The notes: generated from the sequence alone by a model not told the origin. A stretch of DNA of 62,198 bases from Candidatus Margulisiibacteriota bacterium (GCA_031274525.1 JAISQA010000041.1:1-62198); one strand, 5' to 3'. Shown: positions 14,719 to 33,827, numbered from the stretch's first letter. Made by a program: numbers and translations.

Positions 14719-15321
14719 ATGAAATTGCATCCGCAGCAGGAACAATTGCTGGAAATATTGAAAAAAGCGCAGAACGATCCCTTGACCATCCGTGAATTGC
14801 AGGAGGCGCTGGGCTTGAGCTCGACCAGCGTGGTGGCGCACCATATCAAGCAGCTGGAGAAAAAAGGCCTGCTCAAACGCGACCCGGCCAATCCGCGCAA
14901 TTATACCGTAGTCGGCGAGGACAGCGGCGCGCGCATCACCTATCTGCCGCTTTACGGTCTGGCGCAGTGCGGCCCCAAAGGTTCGCTGCTGGATAATAAT
15001 CCTATCGATAAAATTGCGATCTCCTCCGAGCTGGTCAGATTTCCTGTCGAGGAAATGTACCTCATCAAAGCCCGCGGCGATTCGATGCTGCCCCGGATCA
15101 GCAACGGCGATATAGTTTTTGTGCGCCGGGCGGACGCGGCGGACAGCGGCGAGGTGGTGGTCTGCGTCAATGAAGGCGAGGGTCTGATTAAAAAATATCA
15201 GCGGGACAAAAAACAGGTCGTCCTGTCCTCGCTGAACAGCGAAAAATACGCCCCCTTCACCGCCGCGGCCGATTTCCGCATAGAGGGCATTGTGAAAGGT
15301 GCGCTGAGTTATAAATTCTAG
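14719..15321 (+). CDS. lexA: LexA-type repressor (wHTH + S24 peptidase)
   Basis: N-terminal wHTH. ARGDSMLP Ser nucleophile and GLIKKY Lys region. Confidence 0.85.
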   Translation: MKLHPQQEQLLEILKKAQNDPLTIRELQEALGLSSTSVVAHHIKQLEKKGLLKRDPANPRNYTVVGEDSGARITYLPLYGLAQCGPKGSLLDNNPIDKIAISSELVRFPVEEMYLIKARGDSMLPRISNGDIVFVRRADAADSGEVVVCVNEGEGLIKKYQRDKKQVVLSSLNSEKYAPFTAAADFRIEGIVKGALSYKF

Positions 15322-15781: not shown

Positions 15782-18700
15782 ATGAGGTTTTTATATTGCC
15801 AGACTTCGGGTGTTGCTGAACGGCGTGCATTACCCGGGGCAGGTTTACCGGCAAGACCGGCGGAGCGCGTTACGGCAAATGCCAGTATTTTAAATAATGC
15901 CGGAATAGATCAGCCCAATGATTTTCTCAAATATTTTGATAATAATGGAAAAATCAAAGATATTTCCGGGTTTGAAGAGTTTCTGAAAGCAAAAGGCTGG
16001 ACAGCAGCGGCTATTACGACAATGTTTGCCCAAAACGGCACCCAGTATTATTTTTTCAATGAAAGTTTTAAGAGTAAGAATGATCTAACGATCGCTGATT
16101 TTCAGGAGTTTATAACCAGCCAAATTGTGCGTTATGCCAGGGCCAATCCCGGCGCCGCGGCAGATAAGCCGTGGTACAAATTTGACAGTTATAATATTGT
16201 GCCGACAGTGAATGAAACTGCGTTAAGAACTGCCCTGCTGAATACCGATCAAACTAAAATCCCGACGGAGATTAAAAAGCAATATTGTCTTCTTGACGAC
16301 AGCAATAATGTAATCGGAATAAAAGAAAATTGTGCGGATTATTTGCTGGTGGCCTTGATAAAAAATAAGGGCGAGGAATATTACAACAGCAAATTTAGCG
16401 GCGCGGCGGGTAATGCGTACAGGGTGTTTAAGACGCCGGAGGACTGGGGGGTGTTTTTGGCGGGTTTGCTGCCGGCGAGGGCAGCGGGCGATATTATCGG
16501 AGGAATAGAGGTTAATAATGATGAAGAAGGCACAGGAACAACAAGAGGTCTGAATGAGAGCCTTGATCTAGAAAGCTTAGATCCAGAAACTGCTGCTGAA
16601 CTAAGTGCGGGAAAGAAATTGCTGACAGAATATAAGGAAATACTAGATCCTGCTAAACAAAGTTCTTATCAGAGATATAGTAAGGCTGAAAATGAAGCAA
16701 AGAACGCTATTGCTAAGGCTGAAGCGGACGATGCTACTACAGAAGATCAACAAAAAGCTCTACAGGCTCAGTTAATATTTGAGCAAGCCGAGTTGGCCAT
16801 GCAGAAAGAGATAGCTAAAAAAATAGCAGATAGAGGATACACCATTGAAGAAGTAAAAAATATACTGGCTGCTGTTTGCGTTAATCCATATGAAATCGAT
16901 AATATGGAAAAGGTAATAGAGCTTTATTTTAGCGTAATGTCTGCCGACGAGAGATTTAACCAAACGCAGGTTGAGGCAGATATAGCCGCCGTAGAAGCTA
17001 AAATACCGGACACATATCTCAATCAATATGGGCAGGAAAAAACGGATGTAGTTCAGTCGCTAAGATATGGGCTATATGCTAAATTATTTGAGTATAATCC
17101 GACAACTGAAAGCCTGAATAATTATATAGATGCTTTGGAGAGGTATTTGCCGGCAGACTACAGCGAGTCTGGACAATCCAGAGCAGAGATACTCTCTAAA
17201 GCGAAGGCTCAAGGACAAGTGTGGATTAAGGATAGACAGGTGGCTATTGAGTTTGATAAGTATAACCAGGCATGGCAGAAATTGTATGGAGAAAATGGAC
17301 AACCAATAGAAAATAATTATACTATAGAAAATGTCCGTGCCTTTGAAGCTGCTGCTAAAAATTTACAAGCAGTGATTTCTGCTATAGACCAGAGATATAA
17401 GACAGAGAATATGAATAATATCCAAGTTCTTGCAGAAGAAAGTCTTGCAGACCTGCCCGTGATGTATGCAGATGTCTATGTATATAGAATGTTTAATGTT
17501 GTTGACGGTCAATATGTTATTGACCCTGATGGCGTTAATGAGGCCGATATAAATAAGCTTAAAGAAATTATAAATAGCAGTAGTTTTGAAAGGGATAAAA
17601 GTTATGGCGATGAGACTACGTATGGCCGCCACTATGACAGCCTGTTAACTGTGGCTGAGCAGGAGCTTAACAAAAAATCTGCGGGGGAAACGGCTGATAA
17701 AAAAACACCGATCAGGGTAGCGGGAGAAGATGAGGCTGAAGCTGCGCGTCGTAGAGCCAGAGAGGACGGGGAAGCCGTTGCTTTGCAAAGGGCAGTGCAT
17801 AAGGAAAATATAGAAAATTTTTTAAGTGTATATAACGCGTTTGCGGGGGTGGGGTCGCTTACTGCCGCTGAACTTAAACAGCCTGTTGATAATTTTCTGG
17901 ATTTTATCAATAGCCAAGCATGCAGCAGCGCGGTGCTTAATGAAAAACTTAGCGATGAGAAATCAATTGCCGAGCATATTCATATTCGTTTGATGGACAT
18001 TATAGAGTGGCACAGTGTTGATAACAGCATAGCGGATAGTACAACTTATTTGCCAAAAATCCTGGCCGGATTTAATAAACTTAAAGAACAGGATAGCACG
18101 TGGAATTTGGATAATATAGCGCAGCTTTTGACAATACACTATAAGACGCCTGTAACCGTAAGCGCTGAGGGCAGGCTGGTTAACAACGCAGGGCAGGCAA
18201 CCGAGCAACAAAGAGTTGAAACAAGGGCTTCCAGTGGCACAGCGAGAAGTCAGCCGCTTTCGTCCTGGTCGAGACCTGCAACCTCTCCCTGGGGTAATGT
18301 AACTGTGTCTGGACTGGATAATGGCAATGGACTGAATGGACGGCTTAAAGTGGTTAAACGTGATGGAACAGCGCTGGGCGAGTTCCCGATGGGCGACTGG
18401 GTGGGTAGCAGCGGGCGCAGGTTTACCTATACTGATGGGCAAGAATATGTCTTGAGTTATGCAAATGGCTGGAAAATAGAGGCGCTGGCTGCCGGACAGC
18501 CGGGCACAGCGGCGAGCAGTGCGCCGGCTGCGGGGGGGCGGACAAATAGCGGGACCCCGGTGGTATCTGATGCCCCGCAGAAATATGCGGCAGGCAGTGA
18601 TCTTTTTGCGCTGGGCGGCACACAATACAGGCTCAGCGGCGCTATCATTTACTGGAATGATCTCGGTACCCGGAATTACGGAACATCTTATTATAAATGG

Positions 18701-18844
18701 CTGGGAAATAATAAAGTGAGATATGAAAGACCCGGACATGCGGACAATGGCAAGGAATATAATATAGTGAATGGTCAATTAGTTTTGGTTCAAAATATAA
18801 CAACGGGGCGAGCATCCACCGAAGATATTCCCACTGGCTTGTAA
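15782..18844 (+). CDS. 1,020-aa acidic protein of unknown function with a C-terminal Gly/aromatic module shared with the giant ORF
   Basis: GAGGAG SD. It is a long ORF in AT-rich DNA with no signal peptide and no known motifs. The C-terminus carries GRRFTY..YVLSYANGWKIE. Confidence 0.8.
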   Translation: MRFLYCQTSGVAERRALPGAGLPARPAERVTANASILNNAGIDQPNDFLKYFDNNGKIKDISGFEEFLKAKGWTAAAITTMFAQNGTQYYFFNESFKSKNDLTIADFQEFITSQIVRYARANPGAAADKPWYKFDSYNIVPTVNETALRTALLNTDQTKIPTEIKKQYCLLDDSNNVIGIKENCADYLLVALIKNKGEEYYNSKFSGAAGNAYRVFKTPEDWGVFLAGLLPARAAGDIIGGIEVNNDEEGTGTTRGLNESLDLESLDPETAAELSAGKKLLTEYKEILDPAKQSSYQRYSKAENEAKNAIAKAEADDATTEDQQKALQAQLIFEQAELAMQKEIAKKIADRGYTIEEVKNILAAVCVNPYEIDNMEKVIELYFSVMSADERFNQTQVEADIAAVEAKIPDTYLNQYGQEKTDVVQSLRYGLYAKLFEYNPTTESLNNYIDALERYLPADYSESGQSRAEILSKAKAQGQVWIKDRQVAIEFDKYNQAWQKLYGENGQPIENNYTIENVRAFEAAAKNLQAVISAIDQRYKTENMNNIQVLAEESLADLPVMYADVYVYRMFNVVDGQYVIDPDGVNEADINKLKEIINSSSFERDKSYGDETTYGRHYDSLLTVAEQELNKKSAGETADKKTPIRVAGEDEAEAARRRAREDGEAVALQRAVHKENIENFLSVYNAFAGVGSLTAAELKQPVDNFLDFINSQACSSAVLNEKLSDEKSIAEHIHIRLMDIIEWHSVDNSIADSTTYLPKILAGFNKLKEQDSTWNLDNIAQLLTIHYKTPVTVSAEGRLVNNAGQATEQQRVETRASSGTARSQPLSSWSRPATSPWGNVTVSGLDNGNGLNGRLKVVKRDGTALGEFPMGDWVGSSGRRFTYTDGQEYVLSYANGWKIEALAAGQPGTAASSAPAAGGRTNSGTPVVSDAPQKYAAGSDLFALGGTQYRLSGAIIYWNDLGTRNYGTSYYKWLGNNKVRYERPGHADNGKEYNIVNGQLVLVQNITTGRASTEDIPTGL

Positions 18845-19127: not shown

Positions 19128-22100
19128 ATGTCGGAAATAGTAAGTCTGCCTAAATATATTCCGCAAAGTAATGAGCTTAAAATCAATGGTGAAATATCCA
19201 GAGGAGAAGAAGCCAGATACGGCGCGGCTCTGAATGCGATTCTGGCGGACGATAATCCGCTCAGAGTGTCGATGGAAAATAGTTTTAACACAGAGAATTT
19301 AACTCCGCTGGAGACCAGACTTTTACTGGTGGCCTTGCTTAAAACAGCTGATTTTTATAACCCGGATGTGCTTTGGTTTGTTCAGGAACTTTTGTCCGTC
19401 AATGGTCAGGATATTCAGAGTCTTGGTCTGGGGCAGCTAAAAAATGCGGTGGTTGATTTACTGGATAAAAATTCTCCAGCGGTGAGTGCGCAGATTAAAT
19501 CTATAGCGGAACGGATCGTCACCGAGCACGAGCAGGGCCTGGCTTCCAGCCTTGATGCTCGAACTAAAGCGGAATTAAAATATTTTGCCGGTGAGGTGGA
19601 AATTGGCAAAATCAGCCAGCTGGAAGCTTTTGCGGTAAATTTTGTAGAAACAGAATTACTCGGCATGCGGTTTTCCAGAGAGGAAGTTTTAGATATAGCG
19701 GAGCGGATAACGGCCGGAAAAAAACTCTCGGATTCTATTAAGTTCGCATTGAAAGCTTTTGCCGGAGATGCGGATCTCAGTACTGTGAGCAAGCTGATAG
19801 AATTTGCCAATGCGCTGGAGCCGCTGCCGGAAGTAAGCTTGGCGGAAGTGGAGCAAGAAGAAATAACGGAAGGGCCGGATATTCAAGAAACAAACGAGGG
19901 ACATAATGCTCAGCCCGGAAATGCGCCGCAACGCCGTGCTTACAGAACGAGATACACCGCTCCGGCCAGGTATACTCCGCCCGAGTCTGATGATAAACCA
20001 ATTATTCGTTATACACTGGAAGAGCTCGGCGAATATATAAAAGAGAATAGCTCCCCTATTAGCAGGACAATATCTGCCGAATATTATGAAAAATTTATGA
20101 CTGACGGTAAAATAGACCCGCTGAAGTTAGTAGAATATCGTAGTGCCAGATATTATCCAAATTTTTATGCGCGCATGATGATTAATTATATATGCGGGGG
20201 CGATAGAGAAATACTGCGTGCCTTTAATCCAGATGGTTCGCTCAATGAGAATCCGCTAACCGACAACGAAAAGCGTGGCTTGCATGAACGGGCTGTTGCC
20301 GCGGGAGTGTTGCGCGGTAATTATGAACAAGCTCAAGTTATTGCCAAATCCTTGAAAGTACCTCTGGCCATGCTGGAAAATATTACGGATGTATTATACG
20401 TTGAGAAGTTTAAAGATACAGAACTATATAAGCTGATTAGCTGGTATAAAGAGAATGATATTCCTGCGCCGCCGGAATTAATCTTAAGGTATGCTTCTTC
20501 CGCAGAGGTGGCTGAATTAAAAGAAATCAAAATCTGGCTTGGCCGGCCGGTCAAGGTGCCGTGGCCGGACGGGGAACAGGCTGACCTCTGGGAATTGTAT
20601 AAAACGCAATATCAATCCTATATAAAACTGTTAGACGATTTGAACCAGCTTGACTGTTATATATCAGACGTTGAATATGAAGAGATTACCTTTCAAAGTC
20701 CGGACGGAAGGAAAGTCAGCGATTTTGTTCTAAGCGAAGTATTTAGCCGATTTTGCGCGGGTTCTGTATATGGCGATATGAAAACCATTCTGTTTGATTC
20801 TACCCAAATGGATATAGAGAAGCTGATGCAGTTGTGGTCTGAATATCTGGAACATATTAAAACTAATCGTCCGCTGGCAGAACAGATGCCGGGAATTGAC
20901 AATCTGTACAAAGAGCCGATGAGAATGCCCCTGCCGGTGGATTTTATCCGCTTTGTGTTTGAAAGGGTGAATTTTCTTAGCGCTGAATCCAAAGCAAGTC
21001 TGCTGCGTTCTATTTCTCTGGCCGGGCTGAACAATTTTCGGCTGGAAGAGTATAACCCGGTGATTGAGCAAATTACGGCCTTAGGCGCGCCCGTAATGAA
21101 TTCCGCGGAAGTGAAACGCTATGCTAATTCAGCTTTTTTGGAAGCCGCTTCGCCTTATCGAATATATGGCAGTCTTACGCTGGATCAAATAACCAGACTG
21201 CTCTCCGGGAACAGGACAGTCGATGTAAAAAAATTCCTGTCTCCGCTGACGGATAATTTTCTGTTAAATATGCGCCAGGCATTGATGCTTAGTGATTATG
21301 AACAGGGCTTCCGGGAGGGTGCCAGCCCGGATATTCTGGTGCAAAAAAGACAAAATTATAAAACCATGCAGGTATTTTTACAGAAATATCCTTCTCTTTA
21401 TACGATAGAACATAAGAGCGGTGAATTTCAGCAGGAATTATTAGTAATATTAAAAGCAATGAGCTCCTGCGCAAAAAACGGCGCGTTGCTGCTGGATTAT
21501 GATAGTTATTTCATTAATAGCCTGGCCAATTTGATCTATATCGCGGCGTTTACGGCCTGTGATGATGAAGTCCAGTGCGATGACTTTATAAAAAGCGTCC
21601 TGCCATATATGCAGGATATAGAGACAGCGCTGCAAAATATAGATAGAGAAGAGTATGAACTGCATACTATAGACACAGAAGGGCAGCGGAGGGAGGGCGG
21701 CGATTATGCGACGTTTAAGGCTATTTTAGCCGACATACTTCTCTATAATGAAGGAGGTTTATCTCATATTAGGGAATACAGAGCAGCCATTGAGGAGAAT
21801 CTTAAAGCCAGCCTTGATGTTTTGTCAGATGTATATTCCACAGTCGGTTATTCTAAAGAAGATATAGAAGCTTTTAATCAAATAGTAAATACTTATCTGC
21901 ATCTGCCGCAGCATCCGGAAATTTTAGAGCAGGATATAGAAGAAGATATACGGATTATCCTTTTATATATAATGAAAGATGTAGCTCCTGAAGAATCTGC
22001 AGATACTGTTATTTCACCGACAGATCTACAGCGCAGCGCGCTGGTTAGAGAAACAATCCGGTTTTATGAACAAACCAAAAAAGCCCTGGCCAACCAGGAG

Positions 22101-25100
22101 GATAATTTAACAATATTGATGAATATCCTATTCAATTTCATAGTCATATTGCGACAGGGAATACGTGCAGGACAGACATTGGATTTGCTGAATGGCGGTG
22201 ATAGCGCAACTTATGCTTCTATACTGGATGCTTTCGTGGAAGATAAATATGAAGAACTGGATACCAATGGGGACGGGGTGGTTGACACTATGAATATGCG
22301 CCCGGAGTCGGAGCGAACCAATCCTCTGGCAGATTTAGAAGCCTATTCTGAAAACGAACTGAGGTACTTCTCCGGGGCGCTTTATTATGGCCGGGACAAG
22401 CTGAAAAATCTCACAACCTATGCAGAAGCAAAGGCTTTTTATACAGCTCTTGCCGGGCTCCAGCCGCCGCCGTCCGGGCTGGAAACCTTTGGCCGTAATT
22501 TTGCGGCTGATTTTGCGGATAGGCATAGACTCTGGACATACGAACGGCACATAGAGTTTTTAATTGCCGGAGAAAACATTCTGACTGGTTTGGACAAAAA
22601 TACAAAGGAGCAGCTGCTTAAAAAACTCAAATTGAGCGACTCTTTCCTGCATAATAAAAGTATAAATATAATAAGTCTGCTGTTTCTCAAAAGCACCAGC
22701 GGAAACGTGTATCAGACGGCGCGCAAAAATACAGAGGCCGGGCTGAAAAATACTCTTGCTCAGAAAGCGGCCTCCGCAATTGATGCGGTATTTCAGACAG
22801 CGGCTGGCACGGATTGGTCAATGACCAAAGAATATATCGACGAGATATACCATACTTACGATACATACAGACGGCAGGATGTAACCTTCAAATCTTTAGT
22901 AAATCAATTGAGCACAGTGAAGACGATTAATGAAGGATTAATGGCTGGTGAGAATCTGCTGTATGGCGGTCACGGGGGTATAGCCATAAACGGCGGAACA
23001 GATCCATACAGAAAAGAAAATGAAAATGCCTTGGCTACGGCGGCGTTTACTCCCTATCGAAAACTGATCGAACTAGCGGTACGTTTTAATATTCAGGTGC
23101 CGATCTATGTTTATTTTACTCTGCCGCTGGATATTGTCAGAGACCTGTGTGATTTTTTTAGCAATTTGGACAGCCCCGATCGCTGGAACGCACTGATGAA
23201 TGCCGGGTCCAGGGTTGTGGAAATGGCGACCTGGAGAATGACGATTATTAACTGGCTGAAAGAATTCTTTGAGAAAATGGCGGCTGGTCAGTACCTGGAG
23301 GCGTTTTGTTCGTTGTATGTTACGCTGTCTATTGGGCAGGGCTTGTTTAAAAAGACGCTGGATCTGGTAACTCTCAAATCACCCAAAAATGCCGGACTGC
23401 GCTTGCTGGACACCTGCGGCAGGCTGCTGGGGAGAGAAACAGTTCGTCATCTGAATACAAAAACCTTAAATGCCGAAATTGAATTACTGGGTAAATCCCC
23501 GGAGGCCCCGGAGCTTGCCGCCTGGAAAAGGGCTATGCAGAAGTTATCCGGTTTGTCTAAATATGGTTTGTATCAACTGACCGAATCTGCGTATAAACTG
23601 GATGCCAGCGTTGTCCGCGATCGTCTTGACGCGGTGTACAAAGAAGCGCAAAAAGCCGATGCGCCGATGCAGGAGAGGCTCTATCTCGGAGATTTGGCGG
23701 CAAACTATCCCGGACCATCAGAGATAAAGGAAGCAACGGTTAACCAGGCAGGAGCCGTTGTTAATGGCATGGCGACCTGGGGCTGGTTTGGCGTGCGTAA
23801 AAGTTTTGGTCTGTTTTCACATGGAGTCAATTGGGCTGTAAGCAATGTCTCTGTACCCGCTTTGCTCAAGAGCGCCAACGCCGGCTTGTTTAACAGCATA
23901 GAATACAACAACAGCATGAATTTTTTCTACAATGCCGGACGGAAATATATATTTAGACATGGGGTATCCATAGGTGTTGGCAATCATAGGGTTGGTTTTG
24001 GTCTGGGTAATTACGGGCATTTTTTCAATTTTTCTTACGGTAAGCATACCGGTCGGTTTAAGAAGATACGCCTTTTTTCTCCGGTTACCTTGAATAAAAC
24101 AATGATAGAAAGCGCCCAGGAACGTTTAACTAAATACCTTGATGACTATCTCCGGGATGAAATGGAGCGCAACCCGGAACTTGAGTCGGCGCTTAAAGCC
24201 CAGTACTTCAAAGAACATCCGGACGTTCAAAGCGTGTCGGTCGAGGAGTTGTTGAAATATCAGGCGGACAATCTGCCTGTGGCGAGAATACGCGAATTGG
24301 CCAGTGAATTCTGGCGCGGGGCCCTGCTGCCGGATATGCGCACGGAGCTTAAAGCTAATGTTGAAGGCGTAAGCGTAAAGGACGGCAAGACAGTATTAGA
24401 AAAAACAGACGCTATGGATAAAGTAGAACCGGTCAGCACGCAGGAAATAAAAGATGGTTTTACGATTACCTGGCGGGAAAGAATAGCAGGAGACAGCTAT
24501 GAAACTAAAACTGCCAGAATTTCTAACTGGGGGGAGGCCAAAGAGCAGATTGAAAGAATAATGCGCTCTATTAGTTCTCCGGCAGACGCTAAAGCGGCTC
24601 TGCCGGATTTGCTGAAACTGTATTCGGTGGCTTACCATGAAGCAAATAAACTGTTGTCGCCGCCTAAAGATTTGACCCTGCTGAAATCCCAAATGGCAAC
24701 GGATTATGAAATCCTGAAACAGTGCATAGACGGGAAAGAGATTGTCGCTGCTCAGCTGGTGGCTGGAGGCGGAAAAACAGTGACCGGAATTATCGGCATG
24801 CGCATAATGCAGAATTTAATGGGAAAGAAAGACCCGGCAACCGGCAGATATATTATTGAGCCGGCGCCTATCGTGTATGTGGTGCCGCAGGATTCTCTGC
24901 TGGCAGAAATTCTGGAAAAGAACAAAGACGCGCATCAATTGCTTAAATTATTATTTGATGGCGATATCGGCAAAGGTTTTGATGTGATTGAAACTGTTGA
25001 ACAGCGCATGGTTCCGGGCCGGATTACTTATATTTCTTTGCAGACATTATTTTTCAAGTTTATTAGCAATCCGGGGTCGCTGCCCTCCTCAAAGATCGCT

Positions 25101-28100
25101 TATATCTGGGATGAATTTGATAAGTACTTTTTCTTGGATTCGGATTTTATCAGCACGCAGCCGCGTTCAGATGTACCCTGGATACGCCAGCTTTCCAGAA
25201 CTGCCGTGCGGCACACTCTGGAAAAAATAGCAGAGAATATTGATAAGGCTTTAGGCATGGAAAATAAGAATCTTTTTATGGAAATAAGTAAACGTATTCA
25301 GGATGATCCTGCTTGCCGGACGCCAGAAGATGTGCTGGCTAAATTTCCAAACTGGAATAGCCTGCCCGCGGTAGAACAGGCATATCTAAAACAAATTATC
25401 ACGGCGGTATATAGAGCCAGAGGGCTATACTACGATCAATACCCGGAGCATCCTAAGAGCAGAACTAATGATGTTTTTCGGATGGCAGAATTGGATATAG
25501 ATCCTAAAACCGGCGCTGTCTATATGAAACCCGGCGGGGAAATTCAAAAAGATCTGAAAATGAATTATGAGGATAATATTTTCTTAAAGCTGGCGCTGGA
25601 TGCAATATGGAAAATGGATGAGGGATATTTCAAAAAAGAAGAAATAAATATAAAGAAAATAGAGCTGAATATTTCGCAGATCAATGAAACCTTGATGAAG
25701 GTCGGTATACCTCAGCTGATGCATGAGACAGCCGGCCGAATTATTGGCCTGACCGGCACTCTGCAGGAATCCCTGTCGATTATTAGGCCGCTACTGGATC
25801 AAATGTCGTCCCTGCGGGGCAGATCCTGGGATTGCTTCTTCTTCAAATCCTGGGAGACTTTTCCTACCTTTACCCTGAATAAGGACAATATTGTAAATTT
25901 TTTACGCAATCCCGGTTCTTATACAAAAGAAATCGCAGATATTTATGCCAAATATGCTAAGGATAAAACAGCACTGGGCACATTTAAGTTATTTGTAGAT
26001 AACGTGCGGGTCAATGAACCTATCATCGCCGGTAATAAATTATATGTGACCGTAGGCGGGGAACAGATCGAATATGCTTATACGGAGAGAGAGAATAAAC
26101 AATATGTAACAATCGGAAATAAAGAATATGAATATACCGGAAATATTTTAGATGTGTTGCTGCGCGCGCAGCTGGATGCTTTGCCCCCGGACATTGCGGG
26201 CAGGCCGCCCTCTACGCCTGAATTAAAGACTGTGGACTACCGCGGTATATATGTTAGCCCGGATTCTAAAATTCCGGCGACTAGAAAGGATAGTCTGAAC
26301 CTGGCTGCCGCAGAAACGGTAAAACAAATTTATGAGATTGATAAAAATACAGGTGGCATTACTTTTAAGACCACAGCTTTGCTGGACTGGAATATGTTAA
26401 ATCGAGCGGATATTACTATTTTAAGAGAAGCGCTGGTTGCCGCGGTCAAAGACGCGCTGGGAGGAAAACAAACAGTATTGGTGGACTTGGATGGCAAAGG
26501 CCAGAAGAGCCTTTCTCCGAAAGAATTTATCGATAAAGTTTTTTTGGCGGATATCGACGCTAAAGGAGATCCGGTTAAAATGAGCGATATTCGCGAGGCT
26601 GCTACGCGCAAAGGCACTATATTGGCCTTGAGCTGGGCTAACCGCGGCACGGACTTTGGCTGGAAGGCGGATCCCTATATTGGCGTTCTTGGCTTCACGC
26701 CTTTGAAAGCTAATCTGGTCCAGACTGTATTCCGCGGCCCACGTTTCAAACTGGGCGCTGTAGTTGATTATTACATTTCTGCCGAAGATATAGGCTCTTA
26801 TTTAAATATGCGCGAGGGTTATCTCGATATTAAAATTGACGGCCAGGACGTCAATTTAAGAAACAGCTGGAATTCTGTTCAAGAGCAGTGCCGCAATGTT
26901 CCTGCGGAAGAATTCTTTAAACAGAATCCTGCTTTTCTCAATGAATGGCAAAACTTGCAGGCGCAAAGCGTTAAAGCTAAAGCACAGGATGTAGAAGCCA
27001 GAAGACTGCTAATGGCCGAGTTTCTGCGGCAGAATGCTGAATTTGCCAAATATGAATGGCCGCGGATACAACAAGCAGGCAAAGGTAAAAAAGACTTTGA
27101 CCCGATAAATGAATTTTTCCGTCAGCACCCGGATAAACTTGCTGCGTGGCAGGATTTGCCTAAAACCTATCCTGAAACAGTCTTTTTAAATCAGCATCCC
27201 GAATTGGCCGCAGAGTGGCAGAAATTTCAAAAGCAGTATTATAAAGATCCAGTCCAGGAATATTTGGCTAAATATGAGGGGCACTTTGAACTTATTGAAG
27301 CAAGAAAAGCCTCGGCGATGAACAGCATTAATATTGATAATCTCCGGGATTATAGTTTAATCTATGCCGCCGGGGTCAAAGATTTTGCGGAATTTTATCG
27401 TCTAGCTATGGATAAGTATATAGATGTATGTATCAGCAGATTTTATTTTGCCTGTCCGCTTGGTCAAAAAATGACAGCGGAAACAATCAAACGCGGCATA
27501 GAAAATCTACGCACCGCGCTGGCGGAAATCGGCCTCTGGCACGTTAATCCGTTGTTTAATGGTGATTATAAGCGCTTGGTTGCGGACTTAGAAGCTAATC
27601 CGCTGGAAGCACGCAATATTATTAGAGCATTTATTCAAGAACAAAAAGGCTCTCTGCCGGATACGAACGGTCCATATCGGCAGGAAATGTTAAAAGCGCT
27701 GAATTATCGGTCAATATCTGAGGCAATATCTGAAAAAGAAATGCGTGAATTCAGGCGCGCAGGCGGAGATACCGGCAAATATACCGGCCCCGGAGATGAT
27801 CGTAAGCTTGTTTTTGATTTCAAGATCGCCCAGACAGTATTAAAGCCCGGACGGAAGACAGCGGTGTATACGCCGGAAATGTTGCAAAATAGTAATACTC
27901 TGCCCAGCCGGATTATTGTTGAGGTCAACAGCCAGGAAGATCTGACTACCCTCAAAGCATATTATGATAGCTTGAATTTCCGCCAGTATCCCGGCTTGCA
28001 GCGTGTTTTTGAGCAAAATATAGTTATCAGGCTTGGTCAGAATATGATTGATAGAACAGCGGACATTGCGCAAATTTTTCATATTTTTGATCCGAGCGTT

Positions 28101-31100
28101 CAAATCAGCGCGGCTGAACAAACTTTCCGGGTTGCAGATATTGCCCGGACAGGCCCACAAGCCTTGCTGGAAGCTATTTTGCCTAAAGACGTAAAGGGAG
28201 AGACGGTATTTTTTGTTTCCTGGACTGAAGATACAGGCGCCGCACGGCAAATTAACGGTGTTTATACGCCGCCGGAGGAAAAATCTATCGATTTGCGCGA
28301 TTGTACTGTACAAATGGAACGCATTTATCAAGCTATTGAACAGGCTATAAATCTGCCGCCGAGAAATTTGCGCAAATATCTGAAAGAAACTCTGGATTTT
28401 TATGGTATTGAAGCAAAAGCCATAGACAAAATTCTGAACTGGACAGCTAATAACAAGAATAATCTGAGCACGCTGGAAATGATCCACGGTACGGATGAAG
28501 TAGTCTGGTTTACCGCCGCACAAAAAGCTGCGGCGTCCGCCCTGAATGTTGATGTGGAAAAAGTGGAGGCTGTGCATACCCATCCTACTCGCGGCGCCAG
28601 CGCCAGTGAGAGTGATATTCGTACTGGCAGCAGCCATGTGCTCTTTAGAGATCGTACGGGAGAATTAATTTTTGTGCAGAATACAAAACGTGAATTGTAT
28701 GTGCGGACAGATGAACAGGGCAGAAAAATATACGCTCCCTATCCGACGATTGCTCAAGAATCGTCACCGACTATGCGCACGCGTGCGATAGATACAAGCG
28801 TGCTTGTTGAAGAAGTGGATGATCTAAAACCTGCTGAGACAGAAACAAAAACAAAAACTACGATATCTGGAGACGTGTCGGAAGATGTCCCCAGGACTTC
28901 CTCTATAGATGGCAATGGCGCACTCAAGTTTGCCGATCAGGCAATCGCAGGCCTAAGCCAGGATATTGCTATTGGCCTTAGTGAGCAGAGTATGCTGCCA
29001 AGCACGTTGCTGGGGATACAGGCTCTGGGTGAAGAACTGGCCAGCAGCGGTCGAACAGAGGAAATAACCAGATATAATGATTTTGTTAGAGAAGTGACTG
29101 CGGATCCATATTTATTTCTTTTGAGCGAGGAGATAGATAGATTAAAAATAACCGATCCTTCTGCCAAACTTGGGGCTACTCTGCAGGCTTATAATAATCG
29201 TTATCAGACTATTGCTGGCGCGTACAAAACGGAATTTGAAAGCAAAGGATTCAGCATTGGCAGAAGACTTTTGGATAGGCTGGATGAGACCCGCGGCGCT
29301 TTTCTGATCGGACTGGCCATGTCTTTGAAAGCGGAAATTACGGACAAAACACGCTCGGCAATGTCTTTTACCCAGAGAGCCAGTGATTGGGTAATAAATA
29401 TCCCTCAGAATACAGGCTTTGGCATCTTTTGTTCATTTAGGGACAATATATTAACAGATGCATCCTTAAAGCTTGTGAACTGGTTTGCCGGTACAAAACT
29501 GGTCGATGTGCCCACCCTGGCCAGGAATACTGTGATACCCAACCGCGATCTGCGTGCTCTCGGAATACAACCTCCAGCTTCCAGCCGCTTGGCCTATGCC
29601 AAAGGCTGCGGGCAGTATTTGCTGGCGGTTGCCCCGGCGCTTTTTGCGGCAGGTTTTGCGACAGAAGGCGTAGTCGCAGTAATGAATAATCCGGAGTATG
29701 AGAAACTGGCGCTCAGCGCTGATCCTTACGATCAGGAAATGTTTATGGCAATCTTACTTATTACCTGCATGACAGAAGGCGCGACTAATGTGCTTTACGA
29801 ACTGCCTACTATTTTGTCGATGCTCTTTCCGGCTCTGGCTGGCGCTAAAGGCGTAATTATTTCTCTGATACGTACAGGCGGCGGTGTTGCGGCTATGCAG
29901 GCTGGCGGAGCGCTTATCAGAAAAAATATTACCGACCCTTTGATCAAGTATGCTTGTGCCAGAATAGAGCAAAAACGGGCTGAAAATAGGGCCAGAGGCA
30001 TAGCCGATCCTCCGCCGCTCGGCCCGGAAGAAATAGCCCATAAATTTAATCTTTTGAGTACATATTCTTCGGTGGTCAAAAATACAATGAATAAGGCGGG
30101 CAGCGCATTTCTGACCAGATTTTTATCTATCCTGCCGCAGAAATCTTTAACTATGCTGGGCAACCTTGGCCTGAAACTTACAGCCAAAGGTCTGGGCGGC
30201 AAAGGCCTGGAAATGCTGGCCGGCAAATGCCTGGCTGTGGCCGGATCAAAAATTGTTACCAAAGTTATTCCGGTTATCGGCTGGGTGCTTGTCGGTATAG
30301 AAGCTGCAGATTGGCTGGCTGGTTCTATAGAAGATGTGTTTGCCCCGAATCCTATGAAACTAAGCGCGCAGGCCTATGCCGCTCTGGATAAGACAGTGTC
30401 TTTGCGGGAGTTTATAGATATTAATCGTTTTGACGGCGTGCAGTCCCTGCCCTTTGAAGTAGCCCAGCAATTAGAACGCGCCGGTTATTTTCAGCAGGTG
30501 CATGACCGGCTGATGGGCGAAGTGCCGGAGGAAAGTAAATATGAATTCGAAGCAATGTGGCAGGAAATGGTCGGAGCCTTGCACAGCGGAAGTATCACCG
30601 CGCTGCGGGATTTCTGGCAAAAAGCCTGGGTTATCGGTTCTCTGGGCCGGGTATTTGACACTTTTCTCAATGGTGGAGTGGGTGCCAATTTTGGCGCCAC
30701 TGGCGACGGCTATGTTGCTATTGGCGGGCGGGAGGCAATTAACAGCTCCTCCAAATTTTTTGAGGCGGTCATGACCGAAGCATTCAAATTATTTTATACA
30801 GAAAACGTAGACCGTTTTAATAGTTCGGCAGAGCTTTTAACCAGCACGGATGCGCGGGTCAGAGGCGCTTATGATAACTATCTGGGCTTGCTGTCCGCCG
30901 CAGACCGGGATAATGCAAAAATGGCCTGGGGCAGTATGTTTACTTCTTTTATGAGCAGAACGGATTTAACGGTGCCGATTTATCCTGGAGCCAGTCAAAG
31001 AAGATCTGCTGTGTCTCAGGTGGATAAAGAAGCGGCTTTCTTAGAATATATGCGTACACAGGGCATAACAATAGATGCTGCTGACTGGACTTGCACAAGA

Positions 31101-33827
31101 GTTAATACGGATTTGCGTACTGTCAGAACAGCGCCGCACAGTATTTCTGATTTGCTAATGCCCAATGGCCTCTTTGCCGCCGATAAAGATGCTTTTGTGG
31201 ACTTTGTGCAATGGCTGGCTTTTGAGTGCAAAGATGCGGATAAATATATTATGCAGTATGACCCAAATGCTTCTTCATACGTATACTGGGAGAACACAGT
31301 GCTTCCCAAAATAATTCAGCTGCTGAATTACAAGGGTCCTGGACGCAATGGTTATGGCCGGAGAGATTTAGCCGCTGATTTAGCCAGAGAAATTATTCCC
31401 TTGTTGTCCGGTGATAGTCTGTTCTTTGATATAGACGCAGCTTTGCAGAAATACCTTAATTATCGGCTTGATCAGGCCAGCGCCTTTTCCACGCAGAAAG
31501 ACCGCCAGACTCTCAAAGAGCAAGGGGCCGTCTGGAGTCTGTCCAGAGCCAACACCGCAAATTCCAGCGCATTTATCGAAGATACGTTAAAAGTGCTGGA
31601 TCACGTTTCTGGCCGCACTGTATTAGACACTGCGGAGCAAAATCGTCTGCGCGCGGTCATTGCTTATTGGGATGAACAGTCTGAAGCGGATAAAGTCTTT
31701 ATGCGTAATTATCTTACCGGACAAAACCGTGTTGCGGCAAATTTAAGGAGCGGCAGGATTGATTATGTGGATTTATTAGACAAGGTATCTGTGGGCAGGA
31801 CAACCCTGCAAGTACTGTCTGAAATAGATAATATGCGGGCTATGTCTATTGCCTGTCAGGTTAGCAGGGAGCAGAATGGATTTACTGCTGTAAGTTATTT
31901 TACCCAATTGCTCAAGTCTACAGACATTCCCGCTGCGGAGTGGCCGGATAAACTGGGCCTTTTCTTGTATATGAATAATTTACAGGAAGACAGTCTTTTA
32001 TCCGCTGGTCAGACTATTTTTATCAATATTGACGCGCTGCCTTCCTGGGTCATTAAAGAGGCCGAGCCTGAAATCAAAAAACGTCCCGGAGATGCTTCCA
32101 GAGATATAAGTCCTTTGGCTGTGGCGGAGACATTGCGTTTGGCCAGAGAGATTACCGGCACGAGAGAAATAAGAAATCACGGGCAGAGAGGTGCTGTTAT
32201 ACGCAGGGAACCAATCTACGGGGATTATAAGTATGCCTCCACGGAAAATTTATTAAAAAATATTGCCGATCAAGAAAGAGCAGCAGTTTATCTGCTCTCT
32301 GAACAAGCCAACAATAATATTGTGCGGCGCTTTGCTTTTGGCGGTACTCCTGACCAGAGAATTTCCCTGCAAATGACGGAAGGAACTGTTATGCGGCCGG
32401 CCAGAGTAGCTGCTTCTATGAGTAATTATAATAAAGTGCGCGGTGAAATGCTGGCAAGAGGCCTGATCGCTGCTGATATGCAGGCCTATGATGTTATACA
32501 GACACTAGGAGCTTATCAGGAATTTAGAACGATCTATGAAGACGCTGACCGGAAAGTGCCGGAAACCATAGAAACGCTCAGACCTCTGGCTCTTAAACTG
32601 GGAATTACTATTCCGCAACCCCCAACCGCGGAAAGTGTTTATAAAGCATACGCCGAATTGGCCTCTGCCATCAATGCCGCTTGCGGCAGGCCAGCGCTGG
32701 AAATAGATCTGCTGATTGTTGTTTTACAAATCAAAAAAAACATAGCTGAAGATACCAGGGTGAAAGATAAAAAATCCGCTATGTTGAACAGCCTGATCGT
32801 AATGGGTCTGTTTAATAACAGCGCGACGCTTGATTTAGCGGAAAGCATTGTAGCGTTAATGGACAATACTATACCGGTAGGGCCTTTGAATGTTGATGGC
32901 ATACACTCGGGCGCTTCCGGTGAAGAAAATCTGGATGCACTGCTTGTGTTAAGCGGCATAATTACGGCAACAGAGGCAGGCCGTCACAGAGATGCCTTTG
33001 GAGTGTCTATTGATTGGCTGTTCCAGCAAAATAAAATAGAAAATGCCTCTCCAGAAAAACTGACTGATCTGGCCAAAAATCTTTATTTGCTGCATTCTAC
33101 GCTGTCCAATTCCGGTAACTTATATCGCTGGAAAATAGAAGCTCTTATTCTCAGTTCGCCGGCTTTATTGAAAACAATGCTGGTGCATGGTTATAGTGTG
33201 TTTATCAAGGATGAAGTGGTTGATTCTAGACTTGGTTATAATAGTTACCGCCCGTCTTTGGAGAGAACTATTACGGCATTGCGTAATCAGGACCCTTTTG
33301 CCGTCGCTTGTGCTGACTATTTACAGACATTATTGGATACTCATACTGGAATAAAGGCTTCTCGTCAGACGGGGGCGACAGCAACTATTACGCAGGAACA
33401 ATGGGAAACGGCTGTTAATACAGAATTTACGGGCACAGATGGACCGCGTAAGGGAGAAAAATACAGATTGGTGAATGGACGGGTTTACTGGCATAATAAT
33501 GGAGTTTATCAGGCTTCAGCGAGTATAACCGTGAGAAATAATCAGTATTATGTGAATAATCAAGAATATGTTATTCAAAATAATCAACTGGCGCCTAAAA
33601 ACAGGGCCGTTTTATCTATGACTTTGGTTCTTGATGGACAGAGTGTTGCTGTATCGGGATTTGACGCTCGTTTGAGCGAAGCCAGCACCTCATTAAGGAT
33701 TAATGATCAGGAATATCCGCTGGGAACATGGGTTCCCGGCAGAAATGGCCGCCGGTTTACTTATAATGGACGGAACTATGTATTGCGCTATGAAAATGGC
33801 TGGAAAATAGAACGACTGAGCACCTAA
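19128..33827 (+). CDS. giant 4,899-aa multidomain protein with SF2/SecA-like ATPase motifs, a JAB/JAMM metallopeptidase motif and a TM cluster
   Basis: AAGGAG SD 8 nt upstream. The ORF is 14.7 kb and uninterrupted in roughly 35-45% GC DNA. Motifs are AGGGKT, DEFD, GLTGTL, NRGTDF, FRGPRFKLG and HTHPTRGASASESD. Confidence 0.85.
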   Translation: MSEIVSLPKYIPQSNELKINGEISRGEEARYGAALNAILADDNPLRVSMENSFNTENLTPLETRLLLVALLKTADFYNPDVLWFVQELLSVNGQDIQSLGLGQLKNAVVDLLDKNSPAVSAQIKSIAERIVTEHEQGLASSLDARTKAELKYFAGEVEIGKISQLEAFAVNFVETELLGMRFSREEVLDIAERITAGKKLSDSIKFALKAFAGDADLSTVSKLIEFANALEPLPEVSLAEVEQEEITEGPDIQETNEGHNAQPGNAPQRRAYRTRYTAPARYTPPESDDKPIIRYTLEELGEYIKENSSPISRTISAEYYEKFMTDGKIDPLKLVEYRSARYYPNFYARMMINYICGGDREILRAFNPDGSLNENPLTDNEKRGLHERAVAAGVLRGNYEQAQVIAKSLKVPLAMLENITDVLYVEKFKDTELYKLISWYKENDIPAPPELILRYASSAEVAELKEIKIWLGRPVKVPWPDGEQADLWELYKTQYQSYIKLLDDLNQLDCYISDVEYEEITFQSPDGRKVSDFVLSEVFSRFCAGSVYGDMKTILFDSTQMDIEKLMQLWSEYLEHIKTNRPLAEQMPGIDNLYKEPMRMPLPVDFIRFVFERVNFLSAESKASLLRSISLAGLNNFRLEEYNPVIEQITALGAPVMNSAEVKRYANSAFLEAASPYRIYGSLTLDQITRLLSGNRTVDVKKFLSPLTDNFLLNMRQALMLSDYEQGFREGASPDILVQKRQNYKTMQVFLQKYPSLYTIEHKSGEFQQELLVILKAMSSCAKNGALLLDYDSYFINSLANLIYIAAFTACDDEVQCDDFIKSVLPYMQDIETALQNIDREEYELHTIDTEGQRREGGDYATFKAILADILLYNEGGLSHIREYRAAIEENLKASLDVLSDVYSTVGYSKEDIEAFNQIVNTYLHLPQHPEILEQDIEEDIRIILLYIMKDVAPEESADTVISPTDLQRSALVRETIRFYEQTKKALANQEDNLTILMNILFNFIVILRQGIRAGQTLDLLNGGDSATYASILDAFVEDKYEELDTNGDGVVDTMNMRPESERTNPLADLEAYSENELRYFSGALYYGRDKLKNLTTYAEAKAFYTALAGLQPPPSGLETFGRNFAADFADRHRLWTYERHIEFLIAGENILTGLDKNTKEQLLKKLKLSDSFLHNKSINIISLLFLKSTSGNVYQTARKNTEAGLKNTLAQKAASAIDAVFQTAAGTDWSMTKEYIDEIYHTYDTYRRQDVTFKSLVNQLSTVKTINEGLMAGENLLYGGHGGIAINGGTDPYRKENENALATAAFTPYRKLIELAVRFNIQVPIYVYFTLPLDIVRDLCDFFSNLDSPDRWNALMNAGSRVVEMATWRMTIINWLKEFFEKMAAGQYLEAFCSLYVTLSIGQGLFKKTLDLVTLKSPKNAGLRLLDTCGRLLGRETVRHLNTKTLNAEIELLGKSPEAPELAAWKRAMQKLSGLSKYGLYQLTESAYKLDASVVRDRLDAVYKEAQKADAPMQERLYLGDLAANYPGPSEIKEATVNQAGAVVNGMATWGWFGVRKSFGLFSHGVNWAVSNVSVPALLKSANAGLFNSIEYNNSMNFFYNAGRKYIFRHGVSIGVGNHRVGFGLGNYGHFFNFSYGKHTGRFKKIRLFSPVTLNKTMIESAQERLTKYLDDYLRDEMERNPELESALKAQYFKEHPDVQSVSVEELLKYQADNLPVARIRELASEFWRGALLPDMRTELKANVEGVSVKDGKTVLEKTDAMDKVEPVSTQEIKDGFTITWRERIAGDSYETKTARISNWGEAKEQIERIMRSISSPADAKAALPDLLKLYSVAYHEANKLLSPPKDLTLLKSQMATDYEILKQCIDGKEIVAAQLVAGGGKTVTGIIGMRIMQNLMGKKDPATGRYIIEPAPIVYVVPQDSLLAEILEKNKDAHQLLKLLFDGDIGKGFDVIETVEQRMVPGRITYISLQTLFFKFISNPGSLPSSKIAYIWDEFDKYFFLDSDFISTQPRSDVPWIRQLSRTAVRHTLEKIAENIDKALGMENKNLFMEISKRIQDDPACRTPEDVLAKFPNWNSLPAVEQAYLKQIITAVYRARGLYYDQYPEHPKSRTNDVFRMAELDIDPKTGAVYMKPGGEIQKDLKMNYEDNIFLKLALDAIWKMDEGYFKKEEINIKKIELNISQINETLMKVGIPQLMHETAGRIIGLTGTLQESLSIIRPLLDQMSSLRGRSWDCFFFKSWETFPTFTLNKDNIVNFLRNPGSYTKEIADIYAKYAKDKTALGTFKLFVDNVRVNEPIIAGNKLYVTVGGEQIEYAYTERENKQYVTIGNKEYEYTGNILDVLLRAQLDALPPDIAGRPPSTPELKTVDYRGIYVSPDSKIPATRKDSLNLAAAETVKQIYEIDKNTGGITFKTTALLDWNMLNRADITILREALVAAVKDALGGKQTVLVDLDGKGQKSLSPKEFIDKVFLADIDAKGDPVKMSDIREAATRKGTILALSWANRGTDFGWKADPYIGVLGFTPLKANLVQTVFRGPRFKLGAVVDYYISAEDIGSYLNMREGYLDIKIDGQDVNLRNSWNSVQEQCRNVPAEEFFKQNPAFLNEWQNLQAQSVKAKAQDVEARRLLMAEFLRQNAEFAKYEWPRIQQAGKGKKDFDPINEFFRQHPDKLAAWQDLPKTYPETVFLNQHPELAAEWQKFQKQYYKDPVQEYLAKYEGHFELIEARKASAMNSINIDNLRDYSLIYAAGVKDFAEFYRLAMDKYIDVCISRFYFACPLGQKMTAETIKRGIENLRTALAEIGLWHVNPLFNGDYKRLVADLEANPLEARNIIRAFIQEQKGSLPDTNGPYRQEMLKALNYRSISEAISEKEMREFRRAGGDTGKYTGPGDDRKLVFDFKIAQTVLKPGRKTAVYTPEMLQNSNTLPSRIIVEVNSQEDLTTLKAYYDSLNFRQYPGLQRVFEQNIVIRLGQNMIDRTADIAQIFHIFDPSVQISAAEQTFRVADIARTGPQALLEAILPKDVKGETVFFVSWTEDTGAARQINGVYTPPEEKSIDLRDCTVQMERIYQAIEQAINLPPRNLRKYLKETLDFYGIEAKAIDKILNWTANNKNNLSTLEMIHGTDEVVWFTAAQKAAASALNVDVEKVEAVHTHPTRGASASESDIRTGSSHVLFRDRTGELIFVQNTKRELYVRTDEQGRKIYAPYPTIAQESSPTMRTRAIDTSVLVEEVDDLKPAETETKTKTTISGDVSEDVPRTSSIDGNGALKFADQAIAGLSQDIAIGLSEQSMLPSTLLGIQALGEELASSGRTEEITRYNDFVREVTADPYLFLLSEEIDRLKITDPSAKLGATLQAYNNRYQTIAGAYKTEFESKGFSIGRRLLDRLDETRGAFLIGLAMSLKAEITDKTRSAMSFTQRASDWVINIPQNTGFGIFCSFRDNILTDASLKLVNWFAGTKLVDVPTLARNTVIPNRDLRALGIQPPASSRLAYAKGCGQYLLAVAPALFAAGFATEGVVAVMNNPEYEKLALSADPYDQEMFMAILLITCMTEGATNVLYELPTILSMLFPALAGAKGVIISLIRTGGGVAAMQAGGALIRKNITDPLIKYACARIEQKRAENRARGIADPPPLGPEEIAHKFNLLSTYSSVVKNTMNKAGSAFLTRFLSILPQKSLTMLGNLGLKLTAKGLGGKGLEMLAGKCLAVAGSKIVTKVIPVIGWVLVGIEAADWLAGSIEDVFAPNPMKLSAQAYAALDKTVSLREFIDINRFDGVQSLPFEVAQQLERAGYFQQVHDRLMGEVPEESKYEFEAMWQEMVGALHSGSITALRDFWQKAWVIGSLGRVFDTFLNGGVGANFGATGDGYVAIGGREAINSSSKFFEAVMTEAFKLFYTENVDRFNSSAELLTSTDARVRGAYDNYLGLLSAADRDNAKMAWGSMFTSFMSRTDLTVPIYPGASQRRSAVSQVDKEAAFLEYMRTQGITIDAADWTCTRVNTDLRTVRTAPHSISDLLMPNGLFAADKDAFVDFVQWLAFECKDADKYIMQYDPNASSYVYWENTVLPKIIQLLNYKGPGRNGYGRRDLAADLAREIIPLLSGDSLFFDIDAALQKYLNYRLDQASAFSTQKDRQTLKEQGAVWSLSRANTANSSAFIEDTLKVLDHVSGRTVLDTAEQNRLRAVIAYWDEQSEADKVFMRNYLTGQNRVAANLRSGRIDYVDLLDKVSVGRTTLQVLSEIDNMRAMSIACQVSREQNGFTAVSYFTQLLKSTDIPAAEWPDKLGLFLYMNNLQEDSLLSAGQTIFINIDALPSWVIKEAEPEIKKRPGDASRDISPLAVAETLRLAREITGTREIRNHGQRGAVIRREPIYGDYKYASTENLLKNIADQERAAVYLLSEQANNNIVRRFAFGGTPDQRISLQMTEGTVMRPARVAASMSNYNKVRGEMLARGLIAADMQAYDVIQTLGAYQEFRTIYEDADRKVPETIETLRPLALKLGITIPQPPTAESVYKAYAELASAINAACGRPALEIDLLIVVLQIKKNIAEDTRVKDKKSAMLNSLIVMGLFNNSATLDLAESIVALMDNTIPVGPLNVDGIHSGASGEENLDALLVLSGIITATEAGRHRDAFGVSIDWLFQQNKIENASPEKLTDLAKNLYLLHSTLSNSGNLYRWKIEALILSSPALLKTMLVHGYSVFIKDEVVDSRLGYNSYRPSLERTITALRNQDPFAVACADYLQTLLDTHTGIKASRQTGATATITQEQWETAVNTEFTGTDGPRKGEKYRLVNGRVYWHNNGVYQASASITVRNNQYYVNNQEYVIQNNQLAPKNRAVLSMTLVLDGQSVAVSGFDARLSEASTSLRINDQEYPLGTWVPGRNGRRFTYNGRNYVLRYENGWKIERLST

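Follow-up and report, generated by a model that had tools for sequence, protein, structure and literature searches.

The 4,899-residue protein encoded by a giant open reading frame (ORF) of a Candidatus Margulisiibacteriota bacterium appears to carry, deep within its chain, a very divergent motor of the SecA type. The ORF occupies positions 19128-33827 of the window, by which we mean the whole analysed stretch of 62,198 nucleotides (GCA_031274525.1 JAISQA010000041.1:1-62198), runs uninterrupted for 14.7 kb on translation and, like every feature of the giant given below, lies on the plus strand. We consider residues ~1840-2570 (24645-26837) to be a true SecA-type motor, probably able to carry out catalysis, that forms the core of a membrane-associated giant and moves polypeptide, and from the sequence evidence we give this reading a probability of about 0.62. 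The module is delimited by conservation, profile-profile alignment (hhalign), structure matches and a language-model search, and comprises two predicted RecA-like domains together with two large insertions. Its kinship to SecA is seen most clearly through a set of other giant motors from the same phylum, while the sequence of the window motor itself lies beyond the reach of standard family models.

A sequence-only reading of this DNA had listed six motor motifs within the giant, and translation recovers each of them in the proposed order and position within the one frame. Motif I, the Walker A sequence GGGKT (residues 1880-1884, 24765-24779; within AAQLVAGGGKTVTG), aligns with GEGKT of SecA and is invariant in the giant (P0001), its homologues P0002 and P0003 and a fragment from a related genome, G008. 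The motif Ia-like stretch IVYVVPQDSLLAE (residues 1915-1927, 24870-24908), with IVYVVP at residues 1915-1920, aligns with V(H)VVTVNDYLA of SecA. Motif II, the Walker B sequence DEFD (residues 1995-1998, 25110-25121), stands in the string IAYIWDEFDKYFFLDSDF within WDEFDKYFFLDSDFIST and aligns with VDEVDSILIDEARTPLIIS of SecA; its extended form W-D-E-x-D-K is invariant in the family. Motif III, GLTGTL (residues 2207-2212, 25746-25763; within IIGLTGTLQE), aligns with GMTGTA at SecA positions 389-396, and G-x-T-G-T-L does not vary among the three full-length members. The same is true of S-W-A-x-R-G-T-D around motif V, RGTD (residues 2506-2509, 26643-26654; in LSWANRGTDFG, within LSWANRGTDFGW), which aligns with AGRGTDI of SecA and reads ANRGLN in the G008 fragment. 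Motif VI, QTVFRGPRFKLG (residues 2532-2543, 26721-26756), belongs to the string VQTVFRGPRFKLGA, in which RGPR covers residues 2536-2539, and is followed by VVDYYISAEDI; it aligns with NQLRGRCGRQGDPG...RFYISLEDDL of SecA.

The giant thus holds the motif set of a tandem-RecA ATPase of superfamily 2 (SF2), namely Walker A, a DExx-type Walker B and motifs III, V and VI in order. When the motifs were expressed as an ordered pattern with spacing limits (G.GKT / DE.D / TGT / RG.D / RG.R), none of 2,000 shuffles of the giant matched, and among the 2,386 ORFs of at least 150 residues in the window's own genome (labelled G000) the giant ORF alone did so; the pattern is also present in P0002 and P0003. 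The SecA motif strings that the sequence-only reading had quoted agree with the consensus that we derived from 28 SecA sequences of the phylum (VTVNDYLAKRD, DEVDSILIDEARTPLIISG, GMTGTA, AGRGTDI and QLRGRxGRQGDPG). Three elements of the giant, the TGT of motif III, the RGTD of motif V and the DYYIS.ED that follows motif VI, fit this consensus and not the corresponding motifs of DEAD-box proteins (SAT, ARGID) or UvrB (SATP, REGLD).

The claim that the motor is SecA-like rather than a generic helicase finds its main backing in intermediate giant motors. We surveyed 75 genomes of the phylum, each at least 90% complete and about 1.3-3.3 Mb in size and G000 included, with the Pfam family PF07517. 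A housekeeping SecA is present in 74 of the 75 (a canonical SecA of 876 residues is encoded on another contig of the window's genome, G000:C27), and 23 genomes have a second PF07517 match above the Pfam cut-off, located in an open frame of 2,276-6,999 residues; these 23 genomes measure only about 1.3-2.8 Mb. The motor type of the window's genome and of G008 is invisible to Pfam and comes in addition to these 23 genomes. The 6,999-residue frame, from G017 (G017:C22:148615-169611, minus strand; SecA_DEAD 101 bits), contains a motor that matched only its own protein (P0005, 6,992 residues) in the protein collection, and BLASTP found no similarity between its ATPase region and the window family. 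From 21 aligned motor modules, 20 from the 23-genome set plus that of G017, we built a giant-motor profile. In hhalign comparisons this profile matches canonical SecA with E=5.5e-55 over SecA positions 105-577, a span that includes both nucleotide-binding domains and the cross-linking domain, against E=1.4e-5 for DEAD-box proteins and E=2.6e-4 for UvrB.

The window family in turn matches the 21-motor profile with a probability of 98.4% and E=4.7e-15; the 316 aligned columns begin upstream of Walker A and end past motif III, and the score of 124.6 compares with 12-20 for column-shuffled queries. Each domain also matches when taken alone (first domain, score 58.5, P=1e-7; second domain, score 43.8, P=2.4e-5), and the hidden Markov model (HMM) of the giant motors detects P0001 at residues 1850-2227 and 2428-2514. 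A homology to the SecA lineage that exceeds that to other SF2 families is therefore reached through the intermediate giant-motor profile, the direct comparison being weak, and by this route the identification of the segment as an SF2-type tandem RecA ATPase of SecA lineage is supported by sequence. The language-model search likewise placed SecA_DEAD clusters nearest to the window module (0.90, 181 of 256 features), the nearest being a family of SecA_DEAD proteins of 547 residues; for the G008 piece the nearest were P-loop_SecA, Helicase_C and UvrB (0.82-0.86), which we regard as a lead only.

Close relatives of the giant proved few. A word-index protein search returned a single relative, P0002 (4,282 residues), and an exhaustive HMMER search of 1.84 billion representatives identified P0002 and P0003 (3,969 residues) as real relatives, both being full-length homologues; a short third match, P0004, looked by eye like a fragment of a eukaryotic EF-hand/phospholipase C protein and was discarded as spurious. 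Among 60 related genomes besides G000, one, G008 of the same order, had a family match, in a contig fragment with an N gap, and no further family members came to light in collections of genome, metagenome and viral contigs. Within this small family, residues 1800-2600 are the best conserved stretch of the giant, with identities to P0002 of 0.28-0.48 versus ~0.2 elsewhere, and the motors of the window giant and of P0002, which comes from a metagenome, share 45% identity. No residue expected to carry out catalysis varies among P0001-P0003, which holds for the Walker A lysine, the Walker B Asp-Glu, the TGT of motif III and the motif V and VI arginines.

The giants of the same bacterial family place this divergent motor in a recognizable context. 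Homologous giants are encoded in G002 (4,713 residues), G003 (4,751 residues) and G004 (5,147 residues), and their ends can be aligned at 25-36% identity across the family (G002:C126, G003:C17, G004:C19). A conserved C-terminal region of the window giant (residues 3327-4731, 29106-33320), defined by BLASTP against these sister giants, spans ~1,400 residues and matches G002 at 30% identity over 1,561 columns (E=2e-150), G004 with E=1e-104 and G003 with E=7e-75; the first ~170-240 residues can also be aligned with the giants of G002 and G004. The central ~3,100 residues have no BLAST-level similarity to any of the three. This mosaic pattern suggests either very fast sequence divergence or an exchange of the central part of the giant. 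Walker A nevertheless stands at residue 1878 of the G002 giant versus 1880 of the window giant, and Pfam recognizes SecA_DEAD in the giants of G002 (62.4 bits) and G004 (59.4 bits), with a sub-threshold P-loop_SecA match alone in that of G003 (19.2 bits). Judged by its position along the chain, the predicted window motor is in the place that a recognizable SecA-type motor takes in the sister giants. The window giant would then be part of a phylum-wide family of proteins of 2-7 thousand residues with embedded SecA-like motors, and its own lineage would be one in which the motor has diverged past Pfam detection.

On this reading the motor engine would consist of the two RecA-like nucleotide-binding domains, which together carry the full SF2 motif set. 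The insertion of ~190 residues between motifs II and III (residues ~2010-2195, 25155-25712) would occupy the place of the preprotein cross-linking domain (PPXD) of SecA: in the whole-module hhalign alignment its PGGE..DLK...FLKLALDAI pairs with G....Gl..Al.A in the PPXD-equivalent part of the giant motors, which corresponds to GRRYSDGLHQAIEA of SecA. A further ~150-190 residues would precede the second RecA domain. Here lies an extra insertion, between motif III and that domain (residues ~2260-2400, 25905-26327), which has no profile match, is modelled with low predicted local distance difference test (pLDDT) values and is partly specific to the window, with gaps in P0002 and P0003; the giant motors of the phylum also have unaligned extra columns relative to SecA at this point. 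The sequence-only reading had estimated about 300 residues between motifs III and V, close to the ~290 that we measured, as against ~115 in an alignment with the genome's own SecA. ATP hydrolysis would drive the gripping and movement of polypeptide, not nucleic acid, in a module that would do without a detectable SecA scaffold, wing or C-terminal tail. From lineage and architecture we judge it somewhat better than an even chance that the motor moves polypeptide, and so exports or inserts either the giant itself or a partner.

The main rival, though an unlikely one, retains the SecA-derived ATPase and dispenses with export: the module would work in the cytoplasm, as an engine for unfolding or remodelling or as a switch through which ATP controls the rest of the giant. 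Such a role would suit what follows the motor, for when the 455 residues after motif VI of four family members were compared with 28 SecA sequences by hhalign, no scaffold, wing or two-helix finger was found (score 19.0, shuffles 13.5-24.3), a very divergent equivalent being possible, and a zinc-binding tail like that of SecA was also not detectable in the giant. Without a detectable scaffold, wing or two-helix finger, the giant shows no sign of the elements by which SecA is coupled to SecY. It would also suit the hydropathy scan, in which neither the giant nor its three neighbouring ORFs has a signal peptide or N-terminal hydrophobic segment, and the gene content of the window, which includes no secretion-system genes. 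It accounts less well for a hydrophobic, transmembrane-like cluster that a Kyte-Doolittle scan places ~950 residues after the motor (residues 3498-3731, 29619-30320). Equivalent clusters occur in P0002 (residues 3158-3336) and P0003 (residues 3385-3432), so that hydrophobic clusters ~950-1,150 residues after the motor are kept in all three full-length members, and the cluster of the window giant falls within the C-terminal region, which is more strongly conserved with the sister giants than any other part. Polypeptide translocation is, moreover, the only activity known for the SecA lineage, and this too speaks for a translocating motor.

Several further results weigh against a SecA-type motor, and many of them bear on a second alternative, in which the segment would act on nucleic acid as a helicase or translocase resembling DinG/XPD or RIG-I, for instance as the engine of a multi-domain protein of a defence system or mobile element, with SecA-like motifs acquired by convergence. 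The HMM check that the sequence-only reading had proposed (SecA_DEAD, Helicase_C, ResIII) gave no match: Pfam returned nothing for the motor segment at E<=10 or for the whole giant at E<=1, including PF07517 (SecA_DEAD), PF01043 (SecA_PP_bind) and PF21090 (P-loop_SecA), and NCBIfam and PHROGs returned nothing for either. P0002 and P0003 likewise have no Pfam SecA-family match, and the G008 fragment has a sub-threshold match to Pfam DEAD (E=0.046), which favours a helicase. Searches of the PDB by sequence (phmmer) and by family profile found no match for the motor, and the family HMM did not find the genome's own SecA among its 2,386 ORFs. In direct hhalign comparisons the family matches 28 canonical SecA sequences only weakly (P=0.0084, probability 4.8%, in the second domain), at a level similar to that for 25 UvrB sequences (P=0.015, also in the second domain) and below that for 30 DEAD-box sequences (P=9.2e-5, around the Q-motif, Walker A and motif Ia), the strongest direct match and a further point for a helicase. 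To set the scale, SecA itself matches DEAD-box proteins with P=2.7e-5 and UvrB with P=0.0017.

The sub-regions tell a similar story. Taken alone, the first domain scores 43.8 against DEAD-box proteins (column shuffles 11-16), and the second reaches 31.3 with SecA and 31.8 with UvrB (shuffles 14-20; P=0.0014-0.0025 to UvrB and SecA). Neither the II-III nor the III-V insertion matches SecA, DEAD-box proteins or UvrB directly, and the II-III insertion alone scores an unconvincing 19.0 against the giant motors (shuffles 9-17). By themselves, the direct profile comparisons show that the motor belongs to SF2, and do not place it in one SF2 family. Also to be counted here are the transmembrane call for the giant, which rests on a simple hydropathy scan, and the standing of ATPase activity, membrane insertion, export and substrate, which are predicted at most.

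Structure models add to these points. AlphaFold (AF2) models were built from alignments of five rows, and both the module model (residues 1800-2561; mean pLDDT 52.1, predicted template-modelling score (pTM) 0.34) and the first-domain model (residues 1845-2255; pLDDT 61.9, pTM 0.52) are poor, the second RecA domain reaching pLDDT 82-93 within the former. The II-III insertion, mostly below pLDDT 60, is modelled as mainly helical, as the helicase alternative would have it. In a VIA-align search against 48,161 representatives, all 50 matches listed for each model are helicase-like ATPases of superfamilies 1 and 2. For the whole module, SecA takes the first three ranks (2fsf_A, Z 11.1, 317 residues aligned, root-mean-square deviation (rmsd) 5.5; SecA2 4uaq, Z 10.3; SecA motor 3bxz, Z 10.2), followed by other SF2 proteins at Z 9.9-8.2; for the first domain, a CRISPR-associated DinG (Z 13.7) precedes SecA2 (Z 13.2, with the longest alignment, 243 residues, rmsd 11.3) and SecA (Z 13.0). 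The difference in Z between SecA and other SF2 families, ~1, amounts to a near tie. With the whole module as query, the best Foldseek match is DinG (E=1.2e-4 versus 1.7e-3 for SecA, TM-scores 0.19-0.26), and the only four matches at E<=1e-3 are all DinG; with the first domain as query, the matches listed include MDA5, XPD, RIG-I and DinG, and none of those listed is SecA. Structure prediction, which the sequence-only reading had proposed as a check for residues ~1860-2545, thus bears out the fold class and leaves the SecA sub-family unsettled: the assignment of the modelled motor to the SF2 fold class is settled, and the near-tied scores do not discriminate further because all SF2 families share the fold.

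It is for reasons other than fold that we hold a helicase to be highly improbable. The link to SecA through the giant motors is stronger by many orders of magnitude (4.7e-15 and then 5.5e-55, versus 1.4e-5 to DEAD-box proteins), sister giants carry Pfam SecA_DEAD with Walker A in G002 within two residues of that in the window, and motifs III and V are of SecA type. DinG/XPD and RIG-I-like helicases (PDB 6fws, 8s35, 5jch) resemble the module in their tandem RecA domains and large first-domain insertions, and their Foldseek and VIA-align scores tie with or slightly exceed those of SecA; their DEAH and SAT-type motifs and their iron-sulfur (Fe-S) or arch domains are, however, not seen in the giant. 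In particular, motif II reads DEFD in place of a DEAH box, and the four-cysteine Fe-S domain of DinG/XPD is not seen, there being no cysteine in residues 1928-1990, between motifs Ia and II, where its cluster is sited. Least probable of all is an inactive relic kept as a structural spacer, which the extreme sequence divergence, the two large insertions and the RGLN variant of motif V in G008 might suggest, but which is contradicted by the invariance of the catalytic motif residues in the three full-length members and by a module that is the most conserved segment of the giant, the opposite of what a relic would show.

A SecA-type motor in the window giant can be compared most directly with canonical SecA (G000:C27; PDB 2fsf, 3bxz, 5eul) and SecA2 (4uaq, 6t4h). 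Shared with these are the order and type of motifs I, Ia, II, III (TGT), V (RGTD) and VI, the hydrophobic-Y-I/V-S-x-E-D motif after motif VI, the large II-III insertion and, in models of low confidence, a tandem RecA fold with best VIA-align Z of 11.1 for the module and 13.2 for the first domain. The giant differs in having no Pfam SecA_DEAD, SecA_PP_bind or P-loop_SecA match, a III-V gap of ~290 as against ~115 residues, and no detectable helical scaffold, wing, two-helix finger or zinc-binding tail, and in embedding its module from residue ~1,840 onward. In the survey genomes we also noted a second SecA-like gene of ordinary size in G020 (G020:C64:13399-14547; 704-residue frame, 318 bits), beside its housekeeping SecA, which by sequence may be a SecA2-type paralogue.

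Giant proteins with SecA motors have been described before. Most full-length Omnitrophota giants and some of Actinobacteriota are reported to contain SecA DEAD and preprotein-binding domains that are divergent and come without scaffold or wing; these giants also have numerous transmembrane regions and coexist with a normal SecA, and a role in export of the giant itself was proposed (West-Roberts et al., bioRxiv 10.1101/2023.11.21.568195). The window giant resembles them in its divergent SecA motor within a very long ORF, the lack of scaffold and wing, its rapid divergence, the hydrophobic or transmembrane segments that accompany the motor in one chain (known for the window giant from the hydropathy scan only) and the separate normal SecA. 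It differs from them in its length (4.9 thousand residues versus 10 to more than 80 thousand), in a motor invisible to Pfam, in the absence of identifiable enzyme or adhesion domains except for a sub-threshold JAB-like stretch, in having one hydrophobic cluster where those giants have many, and in its surroundings, where neither type II secretion nor carbohydrate genes occur. An Omnitrophota preprint of 2026 reports an architecture cluster of 20 proteins with PF07517 (bioRxiv 10.64898/2026.06.07.730766). Stand-alone secondary SecA_DEAD proteins next to type I secretion-like genes are described by Kamneva, Poudel and Ward 2015 (PMC4452313); they share with the window a second, shortened SecA-type motor besides the housekeeping SecA, and differ in being stand-alone proteins of ~550-700 residues beside HlyD/TolC-type genes, none of which occurs within the window, where the motor is internal to a giant. 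SecA-like helicase-related domains are also mentioned for Amoebophilus effectors (Zhang et al. 2012). Our literature search on SecA_DEAD in giant proteins and on SecA in giant genes from 2023 on turned up no other paper on such motors and no apparent experimental test of one. Set against this work, the window motor is a Pfam-invisible addition to the SecA-motor giants already described (West-Roberts et al. 2023).

The giant belongs to a block (15782-38050) whose four ORFs match no Pfam family, whose G+C content is 0.41-0.47 as against ~0.55 in its flanks and which is bordered by lexA (14719-15321) and purH (38081-39580). Its origin as a recently inserted island, a possibility that we entertained and dropped, does not agree with the sister genomes. 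The block is instead a conserved, fast-evolving locus, because the G003 giant lies directly downstream of lexA, as in the window, and because in G001, of the same genus, a homologue (38% identity) of the ORF upstream of the giant follows lexA, after which the contig ends. This upstream ORF (15782-18844, plus strand) encodes 1,020 residues in the same low-G+C locus and has no family match in Pfam, NCBIfam or PHROGs. It shares with the giant a C-terminal motif of 38 residues (63% identity, E=3e-10, BLASTP) with the pattern E[FY]P[ML]G.WV.G..GRRFTY..G..YVL.Y.NGWKIE, located at 18380-18493 (residues 867-903) in the upstream ORF and at 33711-33821 (residues 4862-4898) in the giant; from its sequence, the motif could be a common targeting or binding tag.

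Other features of the giant and its surroundings deserve mention in their own right. Directly after the motor, residues ~2595-2720 (~26910-27290) contain three repeats of F[FL].Q[NH]P.....[EA]WQ spaced ~25-70 residues apart, which are specific to the window and absent from P0002, P0003 and G008. Farther on, residues ~3112-3171 (28461-28640) bear a JAMM-type motif, HTHPx7SxxD, with a sub-threshold match to Prok-JAB (E=0.0044, 17.3 bits) and one to RadC-like JAB at E=0.12; P0002 and P0003 are largely gapped over this stretch, which may represent the insertion of a metal-dependent isopeptidase or protease domain. Downstream of the giant, an ORF of 761 residues (34493-36778), for which Pfam, NCBIfam and PHROGs gave no match, has WHEVGHH near residues 305-311, an HExxH motif like that of zinc peptidases. 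Outside the block, an ORF of 234 residues with a phage baseplate Gp10 C-terminal domain (47162-47866; PF21939, 28.6 bits) adjoins an AAA_14/DUF4143 ATPase (48365-49612), and G+C falls to 0.39 in this region.

Giant bacterial proteins with built-in SecA-like motors were first described in 2023, and the window giant illustrates how far such a motor may drift past standard family models yet keep every catalytic motif; a motor beyond those models will therefore be missed by HMM-based censuses. Within one bacterial family and at the same locus, the motors range from Pfam-visible to Pfam-invisible, with the ends of the proteins still alignable. With 4.9 thousand residues and a motor module of 730 residues, this family also lends itself far better to assays of ATPase activity or export than do giants of 30-80 thousand residues. 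We entertain as a quite unlikely extension that the motor and the hydrophobic segments of the giant together could make up a SecYEG-independent translocator, which would thread the C-terminal ~1,400 residues, and perhaps the upstream protein of 1,020 residues, across the membrane, its hypervariable centre, motor included, being exchanged between strains by recombination. If such a self-contained translocator were real, Pfam-based surveys would greatly undercount systems of this kind.

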